Virus record (IMG/VR): IMGVR_UViG_2537562172_000001
Coordinates: 1 to 36,796 of that record
Direction: 5' to 3' (one strand)
Length of the DNA: 36,796 nucleotides
Source of the DNA: a virus
Taxonomy: Duplodnaviria > Heunggongvirae > Uroviricota > Caudoviricetes
How positions within the stretch are numbered: position 1 is the stretch's first letter; every line of letters begins with the position of its first letter. This document shows, piece by piece, positions 2,178 through 30,833 of this stretch. The notes beneath the pieces are model-generated. The model had not been told where the DNA came from. It ran no database searches and was given only the letters and a program-made list of their open reading frames with translations. Made by a program: the position numbers and the translations under genes.

Positions 2178-2334
2178 CTGTTCCCTCCCTGTGCGGCATG
2201 GTCGCATGTGCGTGCGGAAGGGGTTACTGCTTTTTGTTGTCGCCGGGTCGGGAGAACGGCGCAGGGGTGAGATTACGCGCGTGGTGGGTGATGATTGTTG
2301 CCGAATCATTTAACGGATACAAGGGGCTGAAGCT

Positions 2335-3519
2335 ATGAGTGAAACTCGTTTTCATGGTGCCCGTGTTACGGAAAATACCGACCTGGTAACAGCGATTAAC
2401 GATGTTGATTCCAGTGTTATCGGTATCGTGGCAACGGCGGATGATGCGGACGCGGAGCTGTTCCCGCTGAACAAGCCCACACTGCTGACCCGCGTCAATG
2501 ACGTGCTGGGAAAATGCGGAACAACGGGGACGCTTTATCGTGCGCTTAAGGCCATCGCAGACCAGGTGAGCACAAAGGTGATCGTCGTTCGCGTGGCTGA
2601 ACACAAAGAAGAAGACGGAAAAACGCAGGATCAACTGGTTATCGGTGGTTCTGAATCTGACGGCAGCTATACGGGGATGTATGCGCTGCTTGTTGCAGAG
2701 CAGGATGAAAGCATCGGATACCGTCCGCGTATTCTGGCCGCGCCGGAGCTGGACACGGAGGCGGTAACAAAATCCCTGTGCGTGATTGCGGGTAAACTGC
2801 GCGCGTTTGTGTATGCCTCATGTCACGGCTGTAACACGATGGCTGAGGCGATTACCTACCGCCAGAAATTCAACGAACGTGAGGTGATGCTCTTATGGCC
2901 GGACTTCATCGCCTACAACCCGAAAAGTGGCAAAAACGAAACGTTCCCCGCGCCTGCTTATGCGTGCGGCCTTCGTGCGTACATTGACCATGAGCAGGGC
3001 TGGCACAAATCGCTGTCCAACGTTCCGGTTAAAAATGTGCTGGGAATGTCCAGGCATGTGTTCTGGTCGTTGCAGGCCGAAGACAGCGATGCCAACAGCC
3101 TCAATAACAAAGAAATCACGACCATTATTCGTCGCAACGGGTTCCGCTTCTGGGGCAACCGCACACCGGAAACGAACGCCTACATCTTTGAGGTGTATAC
3201 CCGAACCGCACAGGTGCTGGCTGATTCAATTGCGGAAGCGCAGTTTGAAACCATCGACAGTCCACTGACGCCTGCGAACGTGAAGGATGTTATCAGTGCC
3301 ATCAGGGCAAAACTGGATTCGCTGGTTACTGCCGGGAAACTGATTGGTGCGGAGTGCTGGTATGACGTGGTGGATAACGGCACCACGAATTTACGTCAGG
3401 GACGTGTGCGTATTCGCTACAAATATACGCCCGTTCCGCCACTGGAAGACATGGAGCTTTACCAGACGTTTACTGATGAATTCTTTGGTCCCGCATTTGC
3501 GGTGCTGGGAGGTGCCTGA
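2335..3519 (+). CDS. FI: Contractile tail sheath protein
   Basis: 394 aa. Motifs LIRRNGFRFWGNRT and YKYTPVPPLE resemble P2 FI (LIRRDGFRFWGNRT, YDYTPVPPLE). Followed immediately by the tube gene. Confidence 0.9.
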   Translation: MSETRFHGARVTENTDLVTAINDVDSSVIGIVATADDADAELFPLNKPTLLTRVNDVLGKCGTTGTLYRALKAIADQVSTKVIVVRVAEHKEEDGKTQDQLVIGGSESDGSYTGMYALLVAEQDESIGYRPRILAAPELDTEAVTKSLCVIAGKLRAFVYASCHGCNTMAEAITYRQKFNEREVMLLWPDFIAYNPKSGKNETFPAPAYACGLRAYIDHEQGWHKSLSNVPVKNVLGMSRHVFWSLQAEDSDANSLNNKEITTIIRRNGFRFWGNRTPETNAYIFEVYTRTAQVLADSIAEAQFETIDSPLTPANVKDVISAIRAKLDSLVTAGKLIGAECWYDVVDNGTTNLRQGRVRIRYKYTPVPPLEDMELYQTFTDEFFGPAFAVLGGA

Positions 3520-4031
3520 TGGCTGTACCAAAACATCTTCGCTTTTTTACGTTGTTTGTGGATGGTGAAAACGAAGTGGGTAAAGTGACATCCGTCACGC
3601 CGCCCAAACTGACGCGCAAAACCGACAGCTATCGTGGTGGTGGCATGATGGGGGCGGTAAGTATTGATCTCGGTCTGGACGACTCCGCGCTTGATGCGAG
3701 TTTTGTTATGGGGGGAGCTGTTCGTGCGCTGTTCCTTAAATATGGCGGCACGATTGACGGCACGCTGCTGCGTTTTGCGGGTGAATACTACACCGATGCA
3801 GAAAGCGATCTGTATGAAATCGAGATGCGCGGGCGTGTGACGGAAATTGATATGGGGGAAGCCAAACAGGGCGAAGCCACATCACACACTTACGCTGTCA
3901 AAAACACCTACTACAAGCTGAGCGTTAACGATCGCCCGCTGTGGGAAATCGACCTGTTGAACCACATCTACCGGAAGGACGGCAAGGACATTGTTCCTGA
4001 CCGTATCCGTTCCGCGCTTGGGCTTGGCTGA
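3519..4031 (+). CDS. FII: Tail tube protein
   Basis: 170 aa, directly after the sheath gene with overlapping stop/start (TGATG). Size and position match P2 FII. Confidence 0.88.
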   Translation: MAVPKHLRFFTLFVDGENEVGKVTSVTPPKLTRKTDSYRGGGMMGAVSIDLGLDDSALDASFVMGGAVRALFLKYGGTIDGTLLRFAGEYYTDAESDLYEIEMRGRVTEIDMGEAKQGEATSHTYAVKNTYYKLSVNDRPLWEIDLLNHIYRKDGKDIVPDRIRSALGLG

Positions 4032-24356: not shown

Positions 24357-24374
24357 TGGGGCTGTCCTTTTTTA
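24345..24374. terminator. Bidirectional terminator hairpin between convergent Q and the orphan gene
   Basis: Stem acagcccc / ggggctgt with 5-nt loop; T-run CCTTTTTT downstream on the plus strand and an A6 run upstream (T-run on the minus strand). Confidence 0.55.
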
Positions 24375-24896
24375 CCAGAGTTGAACCATTTTCTGGGTGC
24401 CGTCAGGCTTGAGATTATCAATTTCAGAGAGAACGTAATATTGAATGGCTTCACAAACGGTGGTGTATGGTGAATTACCTTCTTTAAGTGGCACGATATT
24501 ATTATTAACGCGAGCCTGTATTTCATCGTTATACATTGCGATCGAAAGAGGAGTATGCACGAAGGCGACTTCGCCAGGTGTGTCGTCAACCACTGTCTCA
24601 ATGCTGAAAATCAGTTTTCGCTCATCATTGCCGCCCCTTGCTTTGGGGGTAGCGGCAGGAATCTGAGATAAAGGCATTCTGCGAAACCCTTCAGCCGTTT
24701 CCAGTCCGCATGAAACGTAATGCTGGCGATTACCGTCGCTATCCGTCCATGTCTGTGATGGCAGCTCCAGAGAGATTTCATAAGCATCAACAATTCCCTG
24801 GGCAATGCGTACAAGCGGGGTCAGGTCTTCATTGCGGCGAAAACTCTCCTTTACCTGATCTCGTTTTTCTCGTAACTGCTTGTAATTAATGACCAT
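24372..24896 (-). CDS. Orphan hypothetical protein (about 174 aa) between portal gene and the expected cos region
   Basis: ORF 24372..24935. Likely start is the ATG at 24896 (MVINYKQLREK...), preceded by GGAGG at 8 nt. No family recognised. Confidence 0.6.
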   Translation of the reverse strand: MVINYKQLREKRDQVKESFRRNEDLTPLVRIAQGIVDAYEISLELPSQTWTDSDGNRQHYVSCGLETAEGFRRMPLSQIPAATPKARGGNDERKLIFSIETVVDDTPGEVAFVHTPLSIAMYNDEIQARVNNNIVPLKEGNSPYTTVCEAIQYYVLSEIDNLKPDGTQKMVQLW

Positions 24897-25507
24897 AGAA
24901 CAGCCTCCATTGATTTCTTTGCTCGTATTTTGCACTTATGAAGTGTGGTCGGCAAGGTGCCGCATCACTGACGCGCTTCGCTTGTCTGCTGCTTCGCCGG
25001 GGCATAAAAAATTTATGCCCCGACTCTCCAGCTCCTGTATCAATCAGATAATTTCACGACGTCTTCCGACTTATCGCTATCATCGACGGCCAGACTCTTA
25101 CACAATCCCGCCGCGCTGACTGCATGTTCTCGCCGCCTCAGTGCGATTTTGACGGCCTTACCTTTCATCCCATCAAATCAGAACACCTTACGTCTTTTTC
25201 ACGCTCAGCGTGAGCGATACAGCCATTCTGTTGTGTCGCTGCGACATCGTTCAGGGAATGCTATTTACCCCCTGAAACGCGGGCTGTTCCCCCGTCACCT
25301 GCGCGCAGAAAAAACGCGTTTTTTGTGCACGTACGGATCCTTGATGGATCCAGCTGCCATGCGGGCCTGAAGGGTAAAAAGTCGTTCAAAAAAATTGTGC
25401 AAATTTGTGCACAATCTTGCATTAAAATCAACGTTCAGTGGATGTATTTAAGCGAAAAAAAAGATCTTTGTATAATTTCGTTCGGTTACGTTGGTGAGAG
25501 GTTCTGA

Positions 25508-25909
25508 GTGAAAGACATCACATATTGGAATGATAAAATTCAGAAACAAATTGATAGTTATCCTGAAGCTGTTCGAGAAAGGATAAATTTTGAGCTTGTT
25601 GCACTGCAGAGCGATTGTCCTCATTCTTTCGACAGTTTCGATTTTCCAGTGGATGGTGATGATGCCTTGGGGGTTCCACCTGCTCAAAAAAAATCAATGC
25701 GGGAAACGATTGGTCGCTACGCAATGCAATTAACCATCAAGAGTAGTGATTCTTATCGTATGATTTACGTTGCGAAATTTGCGGAGTCTGTTTACATACT
25801 TCATACATTTAAGAAAAAGACAAATGGTGTGTCAAAAAAAGAATATGAGACAGCTGCCGCAAGATACAAACAATTAGTGGAGTATCGTCGTAAAAATGGC
25901 TTAAGATAG
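25508..25909 (+). CDS. RelE/ParE-superfamily toxin, Gp49/HigB-like
   Basis: C-terminal region YRMIYVAKFAESVYILHTFKKKTNGVSKKEYETAAARYKQ fits the Gp49-like (HigB) pattern. GTG start. Immediately followed by an XRE HTH gene. Confidence 0.65.
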   Translation: MKDITYWNDKIQKQIDSYPEAVRERINFELVALQSDCPHSFDSFDFPVDGDDALGVPPAQKKSMRETIGRYAMQLTIKSSDSYRMIYVAKFAESVYILHTFKKKTNGVSKKEYETAAARYKQLVEYRRKNGLR

Positions 25910-25979: not shown

Positions 25980-26297
25980 ATGGAATTCGTCGTAGTCAAA
26001 AACCCTTATGCGTCATCAAGTAGCTCTGTAAATGAAGCTAGTGATAAACACATCCGGGCCCAATTAATGGTTATTATCCGAAAAATGATTCAGGAGCGCG
26101 GTCTTACCCAGCGAGAAGCTGCTGAATTGCTGGAAACAACCCAACCAAGAGTAAGCGAAATCATTAATGGTAAGTTAGATAATCATACCATTGATCGACT
26201 GTTTATCATGCTAAACATCCTGGGGTGGGATTTTAAGTTTGGGTATTCCGGTGGGGTTGTTACTGCGACGGCAGAACATTCCTGTCAGGTTGCATAA
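25980..26297 (+). CDS. XRE-family HTH antitoxin (HigA-like)
   Basis: Helix-turn-helix segment LTQREAAELLETTQPRVSEIINGK, 105 aa, directly downstream of the toxin-like gene and followed by a terminator. Confidence 0.65.
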   Translation: MEFVVVKNPYASSSSSVNEASDKHIRAQLMVIIRKMIQERGLTQREAAELLETTQPRVSEIINGKLDNHTIDRLFIMLNILGWDFKFGYSGGVVTATAEHSCQVA

Positions 26298-26304
26298 ATA
26301 TTAA

Positions 26305-26337
26305 GCCCCTGACGGGGCCAACCGTCAGGGGCTTTTC
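26305..26337. terminator. Rho-independent terminator after the toxin-antitoxin pair
   Basis: Stem gcccctgacgg / ccgtcaggggc with 6-nt loop, followed by TTTTC. Confidence 0.65.
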
Positions 26338-26462
26338 AACACAAAGAAATGATAGTCTGAGAAATATCATCACCTTGATGTTTTGCATGTACAACTGTGA
26401 TTCTAGTCAATCCAGGCAGATAATCAAGGTAAAAATCATTCTCAGTAAGGAGGTGATTATGG

Positions 26463-26612
26463 ATGGCTTTGAAATCAATTGTAAAAAAACCGGCTCCGAA
26501 AGGATTTCGTTGGCAGTTTTGCCGATACCGTAAGGTTCGTGGTGATTCTGGTCGAAAGCTGGATGCTCATGAGTATGGCTGGAAAGCTTGGGCGTTTCTA
26601 GTGCGAAGCTGA
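26463..26612 (+). CDS. Small basic hypothetical protein (49 aa), not in ORF track
   Basis: AGGAGG about 8 nt upstream of the ATG at 26463. Translation MALKSIVKKPAPKGFRWQFCRYRKVRGDSGRKLDAHEYGWKAWAFLVRS. Followed by a terminator hairpin. Confidence 0.4.
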   Translation: MALKSIVKKPAPKGFRWQFCRYRKVRGDSGRKLDAHEYGWKAWAFLVRS

Positions 26613-26623
26613 TATTTGATATT

Positions 26624-26652
26624 TAAAAGCATGGCGAAAGCCATGCTTTTTG
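26624..26652. terminator. Bidirectional terminator between the small ORF and parR-like gene
   Basis: Stem aaagcatggc / gccatgcttt with GAAA loop, followed by TTT; A-run upstream. Confidence 0.6.
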
Positions 26653-26655
26653 TGA

Positions 26656-26970
26656 TCATTCAGGAAAAAATTCCTGAATATTCTTTTTTATTTGACTTAT
26701 ATTCTGATTTTTGCAACCAACAGGCTCGCTGTTATGCCAGCCCCATATGTGATTGTTGGCAGGCATATTTTCCCCCTCTGACCATTCAGCCAGCCAGTAA
26801 GCAAAGGCAGGATCGTTTTTAATGAGTGCCAGTCCAGCCAGAAATGCCGCGCGTTGCGCGCGGCTGCGTTCGGAGGCTGGCAGGCTGTCGAGATAATTAC
26901 ACGCTTCCCGTTCACTCTTGACTGCAGCTGGCTTCAGATAGAAACTTATCCGTCTGGTTGGTGTCGTCAT
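26656..26970 (-). CDS. parR: ParR-like centromere-binding adaptor (ribbon-helix-helix)
   Basis: From the Met at 26970: MTTPTRRISFYLKPAAVKSEREACNYLDSLPASERSRAQRAAFLAGLALIKNDP resembles R1 ParR (..FKLNPDVNQTDKIVCDTLDSIPQGERSRLNRAALTAGLALYRQDP, recalled from memory). AAGGAG SD; start lies 4 nt after the parM stop. Confidence 0.7.
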   Translation of the reverse strand: MTTPTRRISFYLKPAAVKSEREACNYLDSLPASERSRAQRAAFLAGLALIKNDPAFAYWLAEWSEGENMPANNHIWGWHNSEPVGCKNQNISQIKKNIQEFFPE

Positions 26971-26974
26971 TGGT

Positions 26975-27934
26975 TTACTCCTTGTCCATTGCGTACAGCC
27001 CATTAACCAGAGCAAACTGTGGCACCCCGTCCGCGATGAAAGTCGCATTAACTCCGCAGGCTTCGCGGATAGCGGGTGCCACAATCTCCGCCCCGCCACC
27101 GACAACCATCACCCGCCCGTAACCCGAAAAACCCGCCAGCGCGCGGATCACGCGTTGTTTCAGTGTTTCTTCCTTTTCACGAATAACCGCCATCAGGCTG
27201 GCGTAATGCGCGTCATTGTGGATGTGCTGGCGCAGCCAGGCTTCATCATGGCGATGTTCGATAATGGTATTGGCGATGTGGTGACTGGTGCGCATACCGT
27301 TAGTGGCCATCACCGACAGTACGGCATCGGCCATCAGAGAAACGCCTACGTGTGGATCGCAAAACACCTGGCTGATACCTGCCAGTTGTCCCTGAACCTT
27401 TGCCACATCCAGCGTGGTTCCGCCTAAATCCACAATCAGCAGGGATTCAAACGGACTCATGTCAGCCAGTGCTTTAAAGCCAGCCGGAATGGATTCAGGC
27501 ATAACCCGTACGTTACGGATAGTGAATGCTTCGCCGTTCTGGTACTCCACCGGGCGCATGACGTTCGCTTTTTTGCGGTTGATGTTGGCCATGTCCGGCT
27601 GTGCGTTTGTGTCGAAATACTCGCTCAGTGGCAGGGTGACAACCACATCCACTTCCTGTGGTGTGATGCCTGATTTGACCAGCGCGTGATGAATGGCGAT
27701 TACATTCACATCGCTGTACTGGTATTGCGTGTCAGTCGTCTGGACAAAGCGATCGCTGACCGGATCAAAGCCATAGCGCACGCCATCAAGCATGTAGTTC
27801 GCGGGATGCGTGCCACCGAACGGCGCAGACCATTCCGACTTGAAGCTGTTCGGGCTGATGGCGTTGCGGCGTTCGCCGTTCTCAGTCCATGCCAGCTTGA
27901 TGTTGGTGGAGCCGTCGTCGATACAAATTTTCAT
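26975..27934 (-). CDS. parM: ParM/StbA-like actin-fold ATPase (type II plasmid partition NTPase)
   Basis: 319 aa. MKICIDDGSTNIKLAW (phosphate-1 motif), SPNSFK, YQYSDVNV..HHAL, TLPLSEY, RKKANV, VMPESIPAG and LIVDLGGTTLDV (phosphate-2 motif) align along the whole length with R1 ParM as recalled. Confidence 0.85.
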   Translation of the reverse strand: MKICIDDGSTNIKLAWTENGERRNAISPNSFKSEWSAPFGGTHPANYMLDGVRYGFDPVSDRFVQTTDTQYQYSDVNVIAIHHALVKSGITPQEVDVVVTLPLSEYFDTNAQPDMANINRKKANVMRPVEYQNGEAFTIRNVRVMPESIPAGFKALADMSPFESLLIVDLGGTTLDVAKVQGQLAGISQVFCDPHVGVSLMADAVLSVMATNGMRTSHHIANTIIEHRHDEAWLRQHIHNDAHYASLMAVIREKEETLKQRVIRALAGFSGYGRVMVVGGGAEIVAPAIREACGVNATFIADGVPQFALVNGLYAMDKE

Positions 27935-27963
27935 GTCGCTTTTCCTTATGTTGATTAATTAAT

Positions 27964-28077
27964 CGTTTACAGGATTCTGAAATCCCGCTCTTGCCTGTTT
28001 TGTGCGCGCTTCATATATCGCGGCACGTTTTTTGCTCATTTACGGGATTTGTGAATCCCGTTTCTGTCTGTTTTTTG
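27964..28077. repeat. parC-like centromere/operator candidate: two ~40-bp direct repeats, each containing an inverted repeat
   Basis: Copy 1 cgtttacaggattctgaaatcccgctcttgcctgttttgtg and copy 2 catttacgggatttgtgaatcccgtttctgtctgttttttg lie upstream of parM. Copy 2 sits within the last codons of gene A. Confidence 0.45.
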
Positions 28078-30833
28078 TTTCCACTGGTCAGGCTACCCCG
28101 CAGCAGGTCTGCTTTGCGGCGGGCGCGTTCAGTTGTTTCACTGATTCTCTGTGCGTGCTCTGCGTCGCGGATGGCGCGTAGCATGTCAGAAAGTACGGTA
28201 ACGGGTGTTTTCATGGTGTTCTGGTCTTGCTGAAGTGTGGATGCCAGGCGTGCGGCGGCTTCAGGGGCTGATGCCCCTAGTTGTTCCAGATAGCTGGCGA
28301 CCGGGTTATGGCGGATCTCCGTGCTGCTTACGCCGTGATTACGACTCAGGCGTTGCCAGAGCTGCGTGATTCGGCTGTCCGGGCGGGTATCCGGTTTGCG
28401 TACAATTTCAAATCCCTGCGGTGCAATGATGCTGCCGTCAACGTACAGGCTGCCGCCCCGTAACAGGTGCTGCATCTGCTGTTCACCGATATGCAGGCCG
28501 AGAGATTCAGCAGACTCCCGCCATTCTTTAGCGAGTAACTCGTGGTTATCAGGCAAAGGCCGTGGCTGTTTGCGGCTCTGTGTCCAGTTCTGCATTTCAT
28601 CACTGCTGTTTTTTGCCTGTTTGTCACGAAGCGAACGCATCAGCGCCCGGCGTTCGTGCCGTTTCAGTGAGCGCATCCATTCGTTCACTTCAACGCCGTC
28701 AGGGAGCTGCGGCCACGGTGCTGGCCGTTCTTTCGGCTGTTCTGTCCCGTTGTTGTCCGTTTCCTGTACACGGGGACAGTTATTGCCACGAGTCCAAGGG
28801 GCGGCAGGGCCGCCCTGAAGGTCAAAACCATTTTCACGGGCGCTGTCTTCCGCTTCCGGTTTACGTCTTACCAGCTTCCAGTTATCCGGGTGCGTGCACA
28901 CGCGGGAAGACTCCCCAATGAGCGGCGACCAGATCCCGTAAATCTGTACGCTCTGTTCGCCGTAATCGTTCAGCTCATCTGCGAGGTCGTAGGCGGTGCG
29001 AATCAGGTAGTCTTTGCGTGGAACAAGTACGCCGCCCTGTTTCTCAATGTAGGTGGCAAAACATCCGGCATCAGCGGCAGCAAGAACCGCGTCCATTGCG
29101 TCATCCTTCAGCCGTTGCGGGCCTTCCGGGTTGCGTGCCATCTGGCTGGCAAGGCGGCGGAGTTCACGCCACACCTGACGGGAGGGGATACCAAAGAACT
29201 GGAACTGGCGGACACGGTGAAGGCGCGCCCAGCCGATGGCGCGTTCCACGCTCTCGGCCATTGATTTTCCGGTTTCGTGGTCAACGCGTGGCTTGCCCGT
29301 TTTCGGGTCGATGCCATCCACGGCGCGGCTGTCCAGGTTTTTTCCGATGTAGGTGGCGATGTAGCTGGTTGGCGTGCCTTTTGAGCCGTCGACGTACTCC
29401 GCCTTAAAACGCGGAGTAATATCATCGCCCAGCTCGTGACGATCTTCCTGAATGGCAATATCGCGGGTGTGGGACACAATGGTGTCGATTTCTTCCGGAT
29501 GTGCAAAGACCATCATATGCCAGTGCACGGTGCCGTCATGGTGAGGCTCCACCGTGCGGATGCCATACCAGCGCAGGCCGTCGCGGTTCAGTTTTTTGCG
29601 GACCGCCGCAAAAAACGTGTTAACCAGGTAATCGCTGGAGTCGCGCATGGTGGCCCCGTTCCATTTGGGATTCGGATGACCGTTCTCTGTTGTGGCGTGG
29701 TATTTTGACGGGCAGGTGACAGTCAGAAACACCGCTTTGTCGCCACGGGCTTCGGCCAGAAGTTCCAGCCCTTTCATGGTAGCCATCATTTCTGCCTTAC
29801 GGTGAACCGGGTTACTTACTCCCGCGTAATACACCGTCTCGAGATCAATCGTGAACCCGTCTTCGTTTTCCAGCATGAAACTTTTCAGGAAATCGCGTGT
29901 TTTCTCGCGCTGTGCGCGAAACTCGCTTAACGCGTCCTGGCTCAGATAGGGCGATGTTTTTCTGGAAACCAGACAGGCGGCGCGGAGTTGTTCTTCTCTC
30001 CACTCGCAACGTAACAGCCACAGTTTGCGTTTCCACCATTCTGCACAGGTCAGGCGAAGGATTGCGCCCGGCAGCAGCTCCGTGTCCGGTTCGTTCCTCC
30101 GGTCTTTGTCTGTTGTCAGTGCGTCATAATGTGGAGGCATGGCGTGCAGGTGTAACGCCATGCGGGCCAGCATCTGATACGCCTTCAGGGTTACATCCAT
30201 GGTCAGCTCGCCATCGGTCGAGCCAAAGCCATCGCAGAGTTTTTCGAAGGTGCTGCTGAACATCGCCGCCGTCATGGTGGCCAGCGTCTGTATCTGGTGT
30301 TTGTTGAGCTGCGGCAGGTAAAGCAAATCGTCCAGGCGTTCGCGTCCGGCAAGGGAGCGATAACCCGGTGTCAGCCAGCGGTGATCGGTGCGCTCCAGAC
30401 GTTCGAATATTTTGCGCAGGGTCCCACGCGCATAGCGTTCTGCCTGCCTGGCGTTTTTTCCTTTCTGACGATCGGCTTCCTGTTTTTTGCGCAGGAAGGA
30501 GAGGTGGCGAATAAGCGGATCTCGCAGATAGGACGGCAGCAGGCGCAGCGAGGCCATGGCTTCATCCACCGCGCCGCGTGCCTGTTTTCTGGCGTCTCCT
30601 GCCAGTGTGATGGTTTTGTCCTGTTTTTCCTGTGCGTCCAGGCTTTTATTAATCAGGTTGCCCAGCGGCGTGGCGGAGAACGCCGCATCAGCCATTTCCT
30701 GGCGGCGCTCGTTCTCTACCCGGTAGGCATCCAGCCAGGAGGAAAGCGCGGATTCAGGAGCGGGGATCCCCGTTCCTTCACGCCCCACTGCGTGGCGCGG
30801 TTGTTGCCAGTCCCTGATGTACTCCGTTGACAT
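28011..30833 (-). CDS. A: Replication gene A protein (rolling-circle replication initiator endonuclease)
   Basis: Contains VFLTVTCPSKYH, RTVEPHHDGTVHWHMMVF and YIATYIGKNLD, paralleling P2 gpA motifs (ITLTAPSKYH, VVEPHHDGTPHWHMMLF, YIAKYISKNIDG). 940 aa from the first Met; start uncertain. Confidence 0.9.
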   Translation of the reverse strand: MSTEYIRDWQQPRHAVGREGTGIPAPESALSSWLDAYRVENERRQEMADAAFSATPLGNLINKSLDAQEKQDKTITLAGDARKQARGAVDEAMASLRLLPSYLRDPLIRHLSFLRKKQEADRQKGKNARQAERYARGTLRKIFERLERTDHRWLTPGYRSLAGRERLDDLLYLPQLNKHQIQTLATMTAAMFSSTFEKLCDGFGSTDGELTMDVTLKAYQMLARMALHLHAMPPHYDALTTDKDRRNEPDTELLPGAILRLTCAEWWKRKLWLLRCEWREEQLRAACLVSRKTSPYLSQDALSEFRAQREKTRDFLKSFMLENEDGFTIDLETVYYAGVSNPVHRKAEMMATMKGLELLAEARGDKAVFLTVTCPSKYHATTENGHPNPKWNGATMRDSSDYLVNTFFAAVRKKLNRDGLRWYGIRTVEPHHDGTVHWHMMVFAHPEEIDTIVSHTRDIAIQEDRHELGDDITPRFKAEYVDGSKGTPTSYIATYIGKNLDSRAVDGIDPKTGKPRVDHETGKSMAESVERAIGWARLHRVRQFQFFGIPSRQVWRELRRLASQMARNPEGPQRLKDDAMDAVLAAADAGCFATYIEKQGGVLVPRKDYLIRTAYDLADELNDYGEQSVQIYGIWSPLIGESSRVCTHPDNWKLVRRKPEAEDSARENGFDLQGGPAAPWTRGNNCPRVQETDNNGTEQPKERPAPWPQLPDGVEVNEWMRSLKRHERRALMRSLRDKQAKNSSDEMQNWTQSRKQPRPLPDNHELLAKEWRESAESLGLHIGEQQMQHLLRGGSLYVDGSIIAPQGFEIVRKPDTRPDSRITQLWQRLSRNHGVSSTEIRHNPVASYLEQLGASAPEAAARLASTLQQDQNTMKTPVTVLSDMLRAIRDAEHAQRISETTERARRKADLLRGSLTSGNKKQTETGFTNPVNEQKTCRDI

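Follow-up and report, generated by a model that had tools for sequence, protein, structure and literature searches.

What does an unannotated reading frame of 49 codons do between a toxin-antitoxin (TA) pair and a partition cassette, and how might it be expressed? The question was raised by IMG/VR record IMGVR_UViG_2537562172_000001, a stretch of 36,796 nucleotides (nt) that was analysed at its full length and is called the window below; it is a P88-like (P2-family, Xuanwuvirus) prophage of E. coli. A first-pass annotation, made from the letters alone, had pointed to this open reading frame (ORF) and suggested a small DNA/RNA-binding regulator or a third component of a neighbouring module. It overlooked an out-of-frame ATG at 26459, the conservation of the leader, a hairpin at 26303-26334 and a leftward promoter at 26400-26427, and with them the RNA-level regulation and the predicted antisense transcript that are the main features of the locus. 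On balance, we lean towards the reading that leader and ORF form a portable unit which is transcribed by read-through, gated by an antisense RNA and a pseudoknot, and carries a small nucleic-acid-binding effector as its payload.

The 49-codon gene and its protein family

The gene and its signals were placed as follows.

26463..26612, + strand: small basic protein gene of family PHROG 33859 (49 amino acids, aa; ATG 26463, TGA 26610-26612)
26446..26455, + strand: Shine-Dalgarno (SD) sequence UAAGGAGGUG, invariant across the class I seed alignments
26459..26533, + strand: out-of-frame ATG (twin start), 5 nt past AGGAGG, opening a 24-codon frame that is not conserved
26625..26651, both strands: bidirectional intrinsic terminator AAAA-GCATGGC-GAAA-GCCATGC-TTTTT, a 7-bp GC-rich hairpin common to the ORF and the convergent parR-like gene

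The 49-aa product, of 5.8 kDa, was identical to the sequence quoted in the first-pass annotation, and its description as very basic and Trp/Arg-rich agreed with the computed values (isoelectric point, pI, 10.8; net charge about +9.6; 3 Trp, 6 Arg and 7 Lys). The strong SD that had been described was present, with the ATG nine nt on, counting from AAGGAGG, and so was the hairpin 3' of the ORF (GCATGGC-GAAA-GCCATGC at 26629-26646, flanked by AAAA and TTTTT); an equivalent hairpin and T-run stood 3' of the ORF in the homologous loci. The ORF was indeed without annotation in RefSeq, in the 2 E. coli chromosomes that carry an identical stretch. E. coli EC21Z-048 and IGC_RcoliRes_1.1 are lysogens with the identical prophage.

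A small-protein homology search, which had been proposed as a check, gave a full-length match to PHROG 33859 (function unknown; residues 1-49 of 49, E=4.8e-24). A profile search of 1.8 billion representatives returned 65 clusters at 50% identity, and 291 clusters were found in a 90%-identity collection, every one of them labelled ‘hypothetical’. At one genome per species the family comprised 131 loci, mostly in Gamma- and Betaproteobacteria. The family core read aPxGFRWvFCRYRRV(K/R)(G)NSxkvLDAHDYGYeAWxFLVR, with A35, Y38, G39 and W43 invariant. Over 28 alignable codons in 85 loci, the mean synonymous difference (pS) was 0.89, which is saturated, against a non-synonymous difference (pN) of 0.18, while the same bases read one frame off gave 0.27 and 0.35, respectively. 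The first-pass annotation had made its case depend on conservation of the reading frame in related sequences, and the frame, the SD and the terminator were kept in 80+ loci from many genera; with the strong purifying selection, this is conservation beyond chance. Judged by its sequence, the ORF is a real, widely conserved protein-coding gene.

Scans of the 49-aa protein against Pfam, NCBIfam and PADLOC gave no family, and a profile search of the PDB matched no solved structure. The AlphaFold2 model (90 sequences; pLDDT 88.8) showed a three-stranded beta sheet, one short helix and a basic, less-ordered N-terminus, that is, a predicted small beta fold without known structural relative. In the lambdoid prophages of other E. 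coli strains a 73%-identical stretch was found, for which PGAP calls a 49-aa hypothetical protein (WP_023277296.1). One 630-aa ‘homologue’ (P0037) was discarded as a low-complexity false positive. Two E. coli-like homologues (P0025 and P0033) contained a frameshifted or truncated small protein in public data, e.g. ...KVLDVYWLKLDLVLLLHRT; such versions might be due to errors of sequencing or to the inactivation of a gene whose product does harm.

The ATG at 26459 had better SD spacing than the in-frame ATG at 26463. Such twin starts (ATGnATG, ATGTG and similar forms) were seen in 38 loci, with the out-of-frame ATG 4-6 nt past AGGAGG and the in-frame start 2, 4, 5 or 7 nt later. The length of the out-of-frame peptide was variable (24 codons in the window and about 35 in locus L002), and the out-of-frame ATG may be a decoy, at the expense of the main ORF's output. 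Past the shared terminator, at 26658-26679, the window contained a second perfect inverted repeat, of 9 bp, ATTCAGGAA-AAAA-TTCCTGAAT, with a T-rich run behind it; it overlaps the 3' end of the parR-like gene.

Structured leader upstream of the gene

The intergenic leader, 165 nt in the window and about 160 nt generally, was conserved along with the ORF. When the window was compared with Serratia, Pantoea and the E. coli lambdoid copies, homology started at the stop codon of the upstream gene, though that gene differs. Inspection of the 200 nt 5' of the ORF in all loci showed complementary segments that recur, with sequences that differ between taxa. The elements of the leader in the window were as follows.

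26349..26370, + strand: P2 hairpin of the mRNA leader (AUGAUA x UAUCAU, loop GUCUGAGAAA)
26357..26363, + strand: 5' half of the pseudoknot, CUGAGAA, in the P2 loop (SD-mimic, anti-anti-SD), pairing with 26439-26445
26373..26379, + strand: 5' half of P3, CCUUGAU, pairing with 26423-26429
26423..26429, + strand: 3' half of P3, AUCAAGG, overlapping the -35 element of the leftward promoter
26436..26445, + strand: pyrimidine-rich pre-SD tract AUCAUUCUCAG (anti-SD), of which 26439-26445 is the 3' half of the pseudoknot and 26436-26444 alternatively pairs with the SD at 26450-26458

A covariance model with P2, P3 and P4 as nested helices was built from 13 sequences and run on 84 sources. About 39 true matches were obtained, each directly 5' of the small ORF and on its strand, and they spanned Enterobacterales, Vibrio, Pseudomonas, Xanthomonas and Acinetobacter; the window scored 94.7 bits at 26344-26464. 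The fourth helix, between the P2 loop and the 8 nt directly 5' of the SD, was added to the alignment afterwards and is not part of the model. For the helices overall, 82.9% of the cells were paired, compared with 55.5% after shuffling and about 43% when the partners were slid, and the covariation score was 0.597 against 0.185, a value that 0/500 shuffles reached. P2 was paired in 97.2% of the cells with compensatory changes at 7/7 pairs, the pseudoknot helix in 81.9% with double changes at 8/8 pairs, and P3 in 85.4% with covariation at 8/8 pairs. The ratio of G-U to A-C combinations was 26:2 in P2, 45:19 in the pseudoknot and 16:13 in P3. Because G-U outnumbers A-C, P2 and the pseudoknot are constraints on + strand RNA. 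The leader of the window folded with z=-5.2.

The pre-SD tract was pyrimidine-rich across loci (e.g. AAAUCUCUCUUGG and AAUCUCCUCCCGG), and the P2 loop was purine-rich and SD-like (CCAAGAGG and CCGGGAGG). In the window, AUCAUUCUC (26436-26444) pairs with GGAGGUGAU (26450-26458) in a predicted SD-sequestering hairpin, with an SD pairing probability of 0.66. The SD was folded in isolation, with 20 nt upstream and 12 nt downstream, and the upstream 20 nt were shuffled as control; the thermodynamic prediction for pairing with the pre-SD tract averaged 0.82 across the 39 loci (control 0.49) and exceeded 0.5 in 38/39. Since the tract can pair with either the SD or the P2 loop, it has two mutually exclusive partners. 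The 3' strand of P2 (AUCACC) was also considered as an anti-SD and was rejected as not general, being found in enteric and Vibrio loci only.

Searches of the window and six loci against Rfam 15 gave no family for the leader. None of the known countertranscript families of Rfam (CopA, ctRNA, C4 and others) reached its gathering score, the best being ctRNA_pGA1 (20 bits) and sar (17 bits), on the - strand. TRF found no tandem repeats in the leader, of the kind that mark type III (ToxI-like) systems.

A second class of leader, about 150 nt 5' of the small ORF, was observed in loci L037, L044, L046, L048, L049, L053, L058, L061-L063, L065, L066, L069, L070, L076-L078, L080, L086 and L089. It reads GGAAUGGGAGGCCCAC...GUGGAUUCC, with the conserved blocks GGAAUGG(G/A)AGGCCCAC ... 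(A/G)UAGUGGAUUC, and an internal GGGAGGC is complementary to GCCUCCC 5' of the SD. In 11 loci this class stood behind an uncharacterised family of about 190 aa (M..KDYSLDALNKF...). It appeared to follow the same switch logic and to have the same leftward promoter, its helices being judged by eye. In locus L023, from a gammaproteobacterial metagenome-assembled genome, a C4 antisense RNA (Rfam RF01695, 80.9 bits) was found at 2501-2701 on the - strand, about 1.3 kb upstream of the small-ORF cassette, and sub-threshold c4-a1b1 and isrK-like matches adjoin it.

Leftward promoter and predicted antisense RNA

The region from P2 to the start codon was searched for promoters by simple sigma70 scoring, and the following elements were assigned to the - strand.

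26400..26427, - strand: sigma70-like leftward promoter (-35 TTGATT at 26427..26422, 16-nt spacer, -10 TAGAAT at 26405..26400; transcription start predicted near 26393)
26303..26334, - strand: P1, GC-rich hairpin of 13 bp; its loop reads GGCCAA, or UUGGCC on the - strand, and it would serve the small RNA (sRNA) as Rho-independent terminator and kissing loop; present in the read-through mRNA too
26296..26393, - strand: predicted cis-antisense sRNA of about 100 nt (single-stranded 5' end, anti-P2 hairpin, P1 terminator), both ends estimated from these signals

A - strand promoter was located at the same alignment position in 39/39 class I loci (-35 TTGnnn, spacer of 16-18 nt, -10 TAnnnT), with a mean score of 9.8 compared with 5.0 on the + strand. 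The - strand sites beat at least 95% of the shuffles in 22/39 loci and the + strand sites in 0. The 46 loci outside the model likewise had a leftward promoter (mean 9.9 versus 4.5 on the + strand). A rightward promoter in the leader (TTGATG-18-GATTCT) was considered and rejected, + strand scores being at shuffle level in all loci. The position of the leftward promoter explains why P4 is conserved yet poorly paired: its -35 element is the reverse complement of the invariant CAAG in the 3' half of P3, and its -10 element lies in the ‘P4 loop’. P4 was downgraded as an RNA helix for its poor pairing and its share of A-C combinations; it coincides with the spacer and -10 of this promoter.

At least 5 A preceded P1 in 24/39 loci and at least 5 T followed it in 1/39, which marks P1 as a - strand terminator; a main role as terminator of the upstream operon was rejected because the U-tract is on the other strand. 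Together, the leftward promoter and the P1 terminator predict an antisense sRNA that covers P2. The fold of the predicted sRNA, taken as 26293-26393 on the - strand, had -39.4 kcal/mol and z=-5.9. A hydrophobic leader peptide on the - strand (ORF 26260-26394) was rejected as an explanation of this region, since the changes between Serratia and the window follow hairpin complementarity and not amino acids.

The P1 loop was CGCCAA or TTGGCG in 23/84 loci, against about 9 expected. Some loci had the hexamer CGCCAA and others its reverse complement TTGGCG on similar stems (e.g. window 26316-26321, L002, L023 and L068), apparently through inversions of the hairpin loop that preserved the kissing-loop motif.

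Gene neighbourhood and mobility

Two genes precede the leader in the window.

25508..25909, + strand: upstream operon gene 1, Gp49/HigB-like (RelE/ParE superfamily) toxin (Pfam PF05973, E=3e-13)
25980..26297, + strand: upstream operon gene 2, HTH_37/XRE antitoxin-like repressor (Pfam PF13744, E=8e-19), with its stop 6 nt before P1

The location given by the first-pass annotation was correct, with the Gp49/HigB-like toxin and HTH_37 antitoxin upstream and StbB/ParR-like and ParM genes, followed by a replication protein, on the opposite strand past the ORF. PGAP names the identical copy of the 25508..25909 gene as RelE/ParE family toxin. The order that defines a HigBA-type type II TA module, a Gp49/HigB toxin and then a helix-turn-helix (HTH) antitoxin, was found in this neighbouring pair and not in the ORF. 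Four loci including the window carry Gp49 and HTH_37 upstream, and Serratia and Pantoea have the order Gp49-HTH_37-small ORF with the spacing of about 170 nt seen in the window.

Other partners were found in most of the homologous loci. An M78 ImmA/IrrE peptidase gene (about 180 aa) was directly upstream in 46/83 non-redundant loci, an XRE HTH gene (HTH_3, about 120 aa) preceded the peptidase on the strand of the ORF in 42 loci, and these HTH-peptidase genes ended 110-200 nt before the small ORF. The two genes were adjacent in 40/83 loci and absent in the window; in the E. coli lambdoid copy they matched capH (4e-10) and capP (6e-11) in PADLOC. Further partners were the family of about 190 aa (11 loci) and a family of 256 aa (four loci), for which the libraries searched (Pfam, and NCBIfam for the 190-aa family) gave no match. 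A same-strand gene ended 100-230 nt upstream of the ORF in 70/85 loci. The genes 3' of the ORF and 5' of the HTH gene were unrelated between loci, and because these flanks are not conserved the cassette is taken as self-contained, with the small ORF as its last gene. The same protein family (60-85% identical) thus stood behind at least 4 unrelated partner sets (ImmA/IrrE, HTH_37, the 190-aa family and the 256-aa family). Since RNA leader and antisense promoter are kept when one upstream partner takes the place of another, the unit is the leader plus ORF on a stress-regulated operon and not a HigBA-like subunit. The suggestion of a third component of a neighbouring module was thus right as to gene order, the ORF being the last gene of three-gene cassettes, and did not hold as to a subunit of the HigBA-like pair.

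The family was also present on ColE1-type Klebsiella and E. coli plasmids of 4-9 kb, where HTH and ImmA are divergent from a two-gene operon made of a 60-aa ORF and the small ORF, and on Acinetobacter pOXA58-type and Legionella plasmids, and it was found in 1/50,697 phage records. Two of the tiny ColE1-type plasmids, L093 (NZ_CP073787.1, 4.6 kb; 2185-3924) and L094, had the 60-aa ORF (MKPGNRATRSGQYEIIG...) followed by an unannotated homologue of the small ORF; their leader is a different variant, yet a leftward TTGGCT-17-TACACT promoter was read in it by eye.

In the P2-like prophage of the window the cassette occupied a variable ‘moron’ slot. This slot is bounded on one side by the portal gene and an uncharacterised 187-aa ORF (24372-24935, - strand) and on the other by the ParM/ParR partition pair and a 940-aa replication protein (26975-30833, - strand). 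The flanks recurred in related P88-like phages and the insert did not (65-77% of the query covered by 2-3 aligned pieces).

Proposed mechanism and alternative explanations

The ORF would be transcribed by read-through from whichever autoregulated, stress-responsive operon lies upstream. That its mRNA originates in that operon is indicated by the lack of a rightward promoter in the leader and by the position of the covarying P2, 5' of any possible internal start. Read-through would pass P1, which has no U-tract on the + strand in most loci. In the OFF state the pre-SD tract would fold onto the SD, and in the ON state the P2 loop would capture the tract as a pseudoknot and free the SD. The sRNA of about 100 nt, with full complementarity to both P2 and P1, would bind by loop-loop contacts and block the pseudoknot, and the sRNA-mRNA duplex would probably be an RNase III substrate and be cleaved. 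The leftward promoter would oppose the incoming polymerase, so that read-through and sRNA synthesis interfere; this interference and the blocking by the sRNA would together give a threshold response, with protein made only when upstream transcription is well above basal. In most loci the trigger would be cleavage of the XRE repressor by the ImmA/IrrE-type protease on DNA damage (a CapH/CapP-like switch), and in the window it would be the autoregulated HigBA-like operon. A potent product, probably one that inhibits growth, is suggested by the multilayer silencing, the cassette-like mobility and the occurrence on tiny plasmids, and the protein would most likely be a growth-arresting or otherwise potent small nucleic-acid-binding effector or toxin.

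The source of the mRNA separates this mechanism from the main idea of the first-pass annotation, an autonomous ‘moron’ encoding a small DNA/RNA-binding regulator with its own promoter and unrelated in function to the TA or HTH-ImmA neighbours. A basic, aromatic-rich protein with a confident predicted beta fold, an ORF with its own strong SD and terminator, and variable moron positions across prophages and plasmids would all suit such a gene. However, no + strand promoter was found in the leader of any locus, the same-strand gene a short way upstream was common, and P2 covaries upstream of any internal start, so the mRNA must begin further upstream; an autonomous moron is thus quite unlikely. 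The partner sets bear in turn on a true third protein subunit (chaperone, adaptor or inhibitor), which would act on HigB/HigA here and on ImmA/XRE elsewhere, as in tripartite TA systems. Gene order is strict within each cassette type, and Makarova et al. predicted that Xre-COG2856 has a third, unknown component and proposed three-component systems; yet one protein family stands behind at least four unrelated partner sets, and the small plasmids have the ORF apart from HTH-ImmA and on the other strand. Specific protein contacts would not outlast such partner swapping, through which the RNA leader alone is constant, and we regard this subunit as improbable to the same degree.

Two further explanations turn on the leader itself. 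The protein could be an autoregulatory RNA-binding protein that binds its own pseudoknotted leader, in the manner of a ribosomal-protein leader or of type III systems, with the RNA neutralising or titrating it. The inseparability of leader and ORF, the pseudoknot adjoining the SD and the very basic protein are consistent with this, but the leader is without the tandem RNA repeats that define type III antitoxins, nothing ties protein residues to RNA features, and the antisense promoter and terminator already account for most of the conserved leader, so that we consider autoregulation very unlikely. Alternatively, the sign may be opposite, with a repressive pseudoknot and the antisense sRNA as activator, or with the leftward promoter itself regulated. 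With a stable helix reaching to 1 nt from the SD, 30S binding could be impeded, and the sRNA loop has the sequence of the pre-SD tract and would compete for the P2 loop. Against this, the pre-SD tract alone is predicted to sequester the SD in nearly all class I loci, so a pseudoknot should open it, and in the one experimentally known system of this geometry the antisense RNA is the repressor and the pseudoknot the activator; the opposite sign therefore seems fairly unlikely.

Several observations weigh against the read-through unit with its antisense and pseudoknot gate. About 15/85 loci had no obvious same-strand upstream gene, by crude ORF calling, and some copies of the ORF may have their own promoter. 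P4 was 64% paired with A-C equal to or above G-U, and P3 had no strand asymmetry; part of the conservation is therefore that of promoter DNA and not of RNA. The helix counts come from a model-fitted alignment and are biased towards P2, P3 and P4, though not towards the pseudoknot. In the window UUUU comes after P1, and some of the read-through could end there. The protein did not resemble any known toxin or nucleic-acid binder and had no hydrophobic helix of the kind typical of type I toxins. What is said here of the sRNA and its ends, of read-through and of translation of the ORF is prediction throughout.

Few two-gene ‘toxin-antitoxin-like’ modules are as common as the Xre-ImmA/IrrE (COG2856) pairs, many of which, to our knowledge, still lack a convincing toxin. 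A gene of 45-50 codons, overlooked at their 3' end, would explain what a whole subfamily of these pairs controls. On the reading of a read-through, RNA-gated unit, it may tentatively be proposed that leader and ORF are an unrecognised, widespread class of RNA-gated effectors, the predicted third component of Xre-COG2856 cassettes and of some HigBA-like operons, whose product would be a basic, non-membrane mini-protein toxin of new fold released by repressor inactivation and the antisense/pseudoknot switch. The locus offers an RNA motif of unusually clean covariation, pseudoknot included, and a predicted sRNA, both absent from Rfam; if true, each would found a new family in Proteobacteria, one of structured RNAs and one of sRNAs. 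Annotation pipelines overlook the gene in many genomes. A literature search by accession and PHROG number, and for small ORFs or sRNAs attached to ImmA/IrrE cassettes or ImmA-linked type I systems, found no paper. The mechanisms are known singly, but neither their combination nor the RNA motif, nor the sRNA and the protein fold predicted here, have been described. We know of the antisense-versus-pseudoknot switch so far only from plasmid replication control.

Comparison with known systems

In phages P1 and P7 (c4, icd-ant), an upstream hairpin loop on the same strand and in one transcript is complementary to the ribosome-binding site (RBS) region of a downstream small ORF. The leader described here likewise sets a hairpin loop against the RBS region of the same transcript. 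However, c4 pairing represses and involves no opposite-strand sRNA, and the Rfam families C4 and c4-a1b1 did not match the leader.

With an M78 peptidase gene behind an XRE HTH gene, most of the homologous loci resemble CapH/CapP, ImmR/ImmA and DdrO/IrrE. In its canonical form CapH/CapP controls an immune operon of several genes that is divergent from it, whereas the sole conserved companion here was the small ORF, downstream on the same strand and divergent only on the small ColE1-type plasmids. The layout of those plasmids is that of canonical CapH/CapP and its target operons, which speaks for the payload reading. The window itself has no ImmA/IrrE gene.

Type I TA systems such as hok/sok, symE/symR and tisB/istR-1 combine a tiny ORF, an SD-hiding leader and a constitutive cis antisense sRNA with its own promoter and terminator, and tisB and symE are SOS-controlled, which ties mRNA synthesis to a stress repressor. 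A small protein (<about 60 aa) beside an antisense RNA gene was found here in silico (49 aa; leftward promoter and terminator in the leaders of all loci examined). Unlike the type I toxins, the protein is predicted to be hydrophilic and has no predicted membrane helix, and its toxicity is hypothetical; the mRNA, moreover, has no promoter of its own and is apparently the last cistron of a protein-regulated operon.

The closest geometry was that of the I-complex plasmids (IncI-alpha ColIb-P9 repZ, IncB pMU720 repA and IncL/M). In published accounts of these plasmids, an antisense Inc RNA/RNAI binds a leader hairpin loop and blocks a pseudoknot between that loop and the sequence beside the RBS, on which translation depends. 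The systems have in common an antisense RNA from the leader set against a loop-RBS pseudoknot, and an RBS that is otherwise sequestered, which is predicted here. They also share the UUGGCG/CGCCAA loop motif, which is named for the target of the ColIb-P9 Inc RNA; the - strand of the window has UUGGCC. The differences are that no Rfam antisense family matched here; that there is no conserved leader ORF and no evident translational coupling, just an out-of-frame ATG 2-7 nt before the start; that the UUGGCG-type loop is on the terminator hairpin P1, the pseudoknot using the P2 loop; that the regulated gene encodes a 49-aa protein and not a replication initiator; and that the element lies at the 3' end of stress operons and not at a replicon. 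If the gate works as proposed, a plasmid copy-number device would have found a second use in the control of stress-induced effectors, on prophages, on islands and on plasmids, among them clinical ones of Acinetobacter and Klebsiella.

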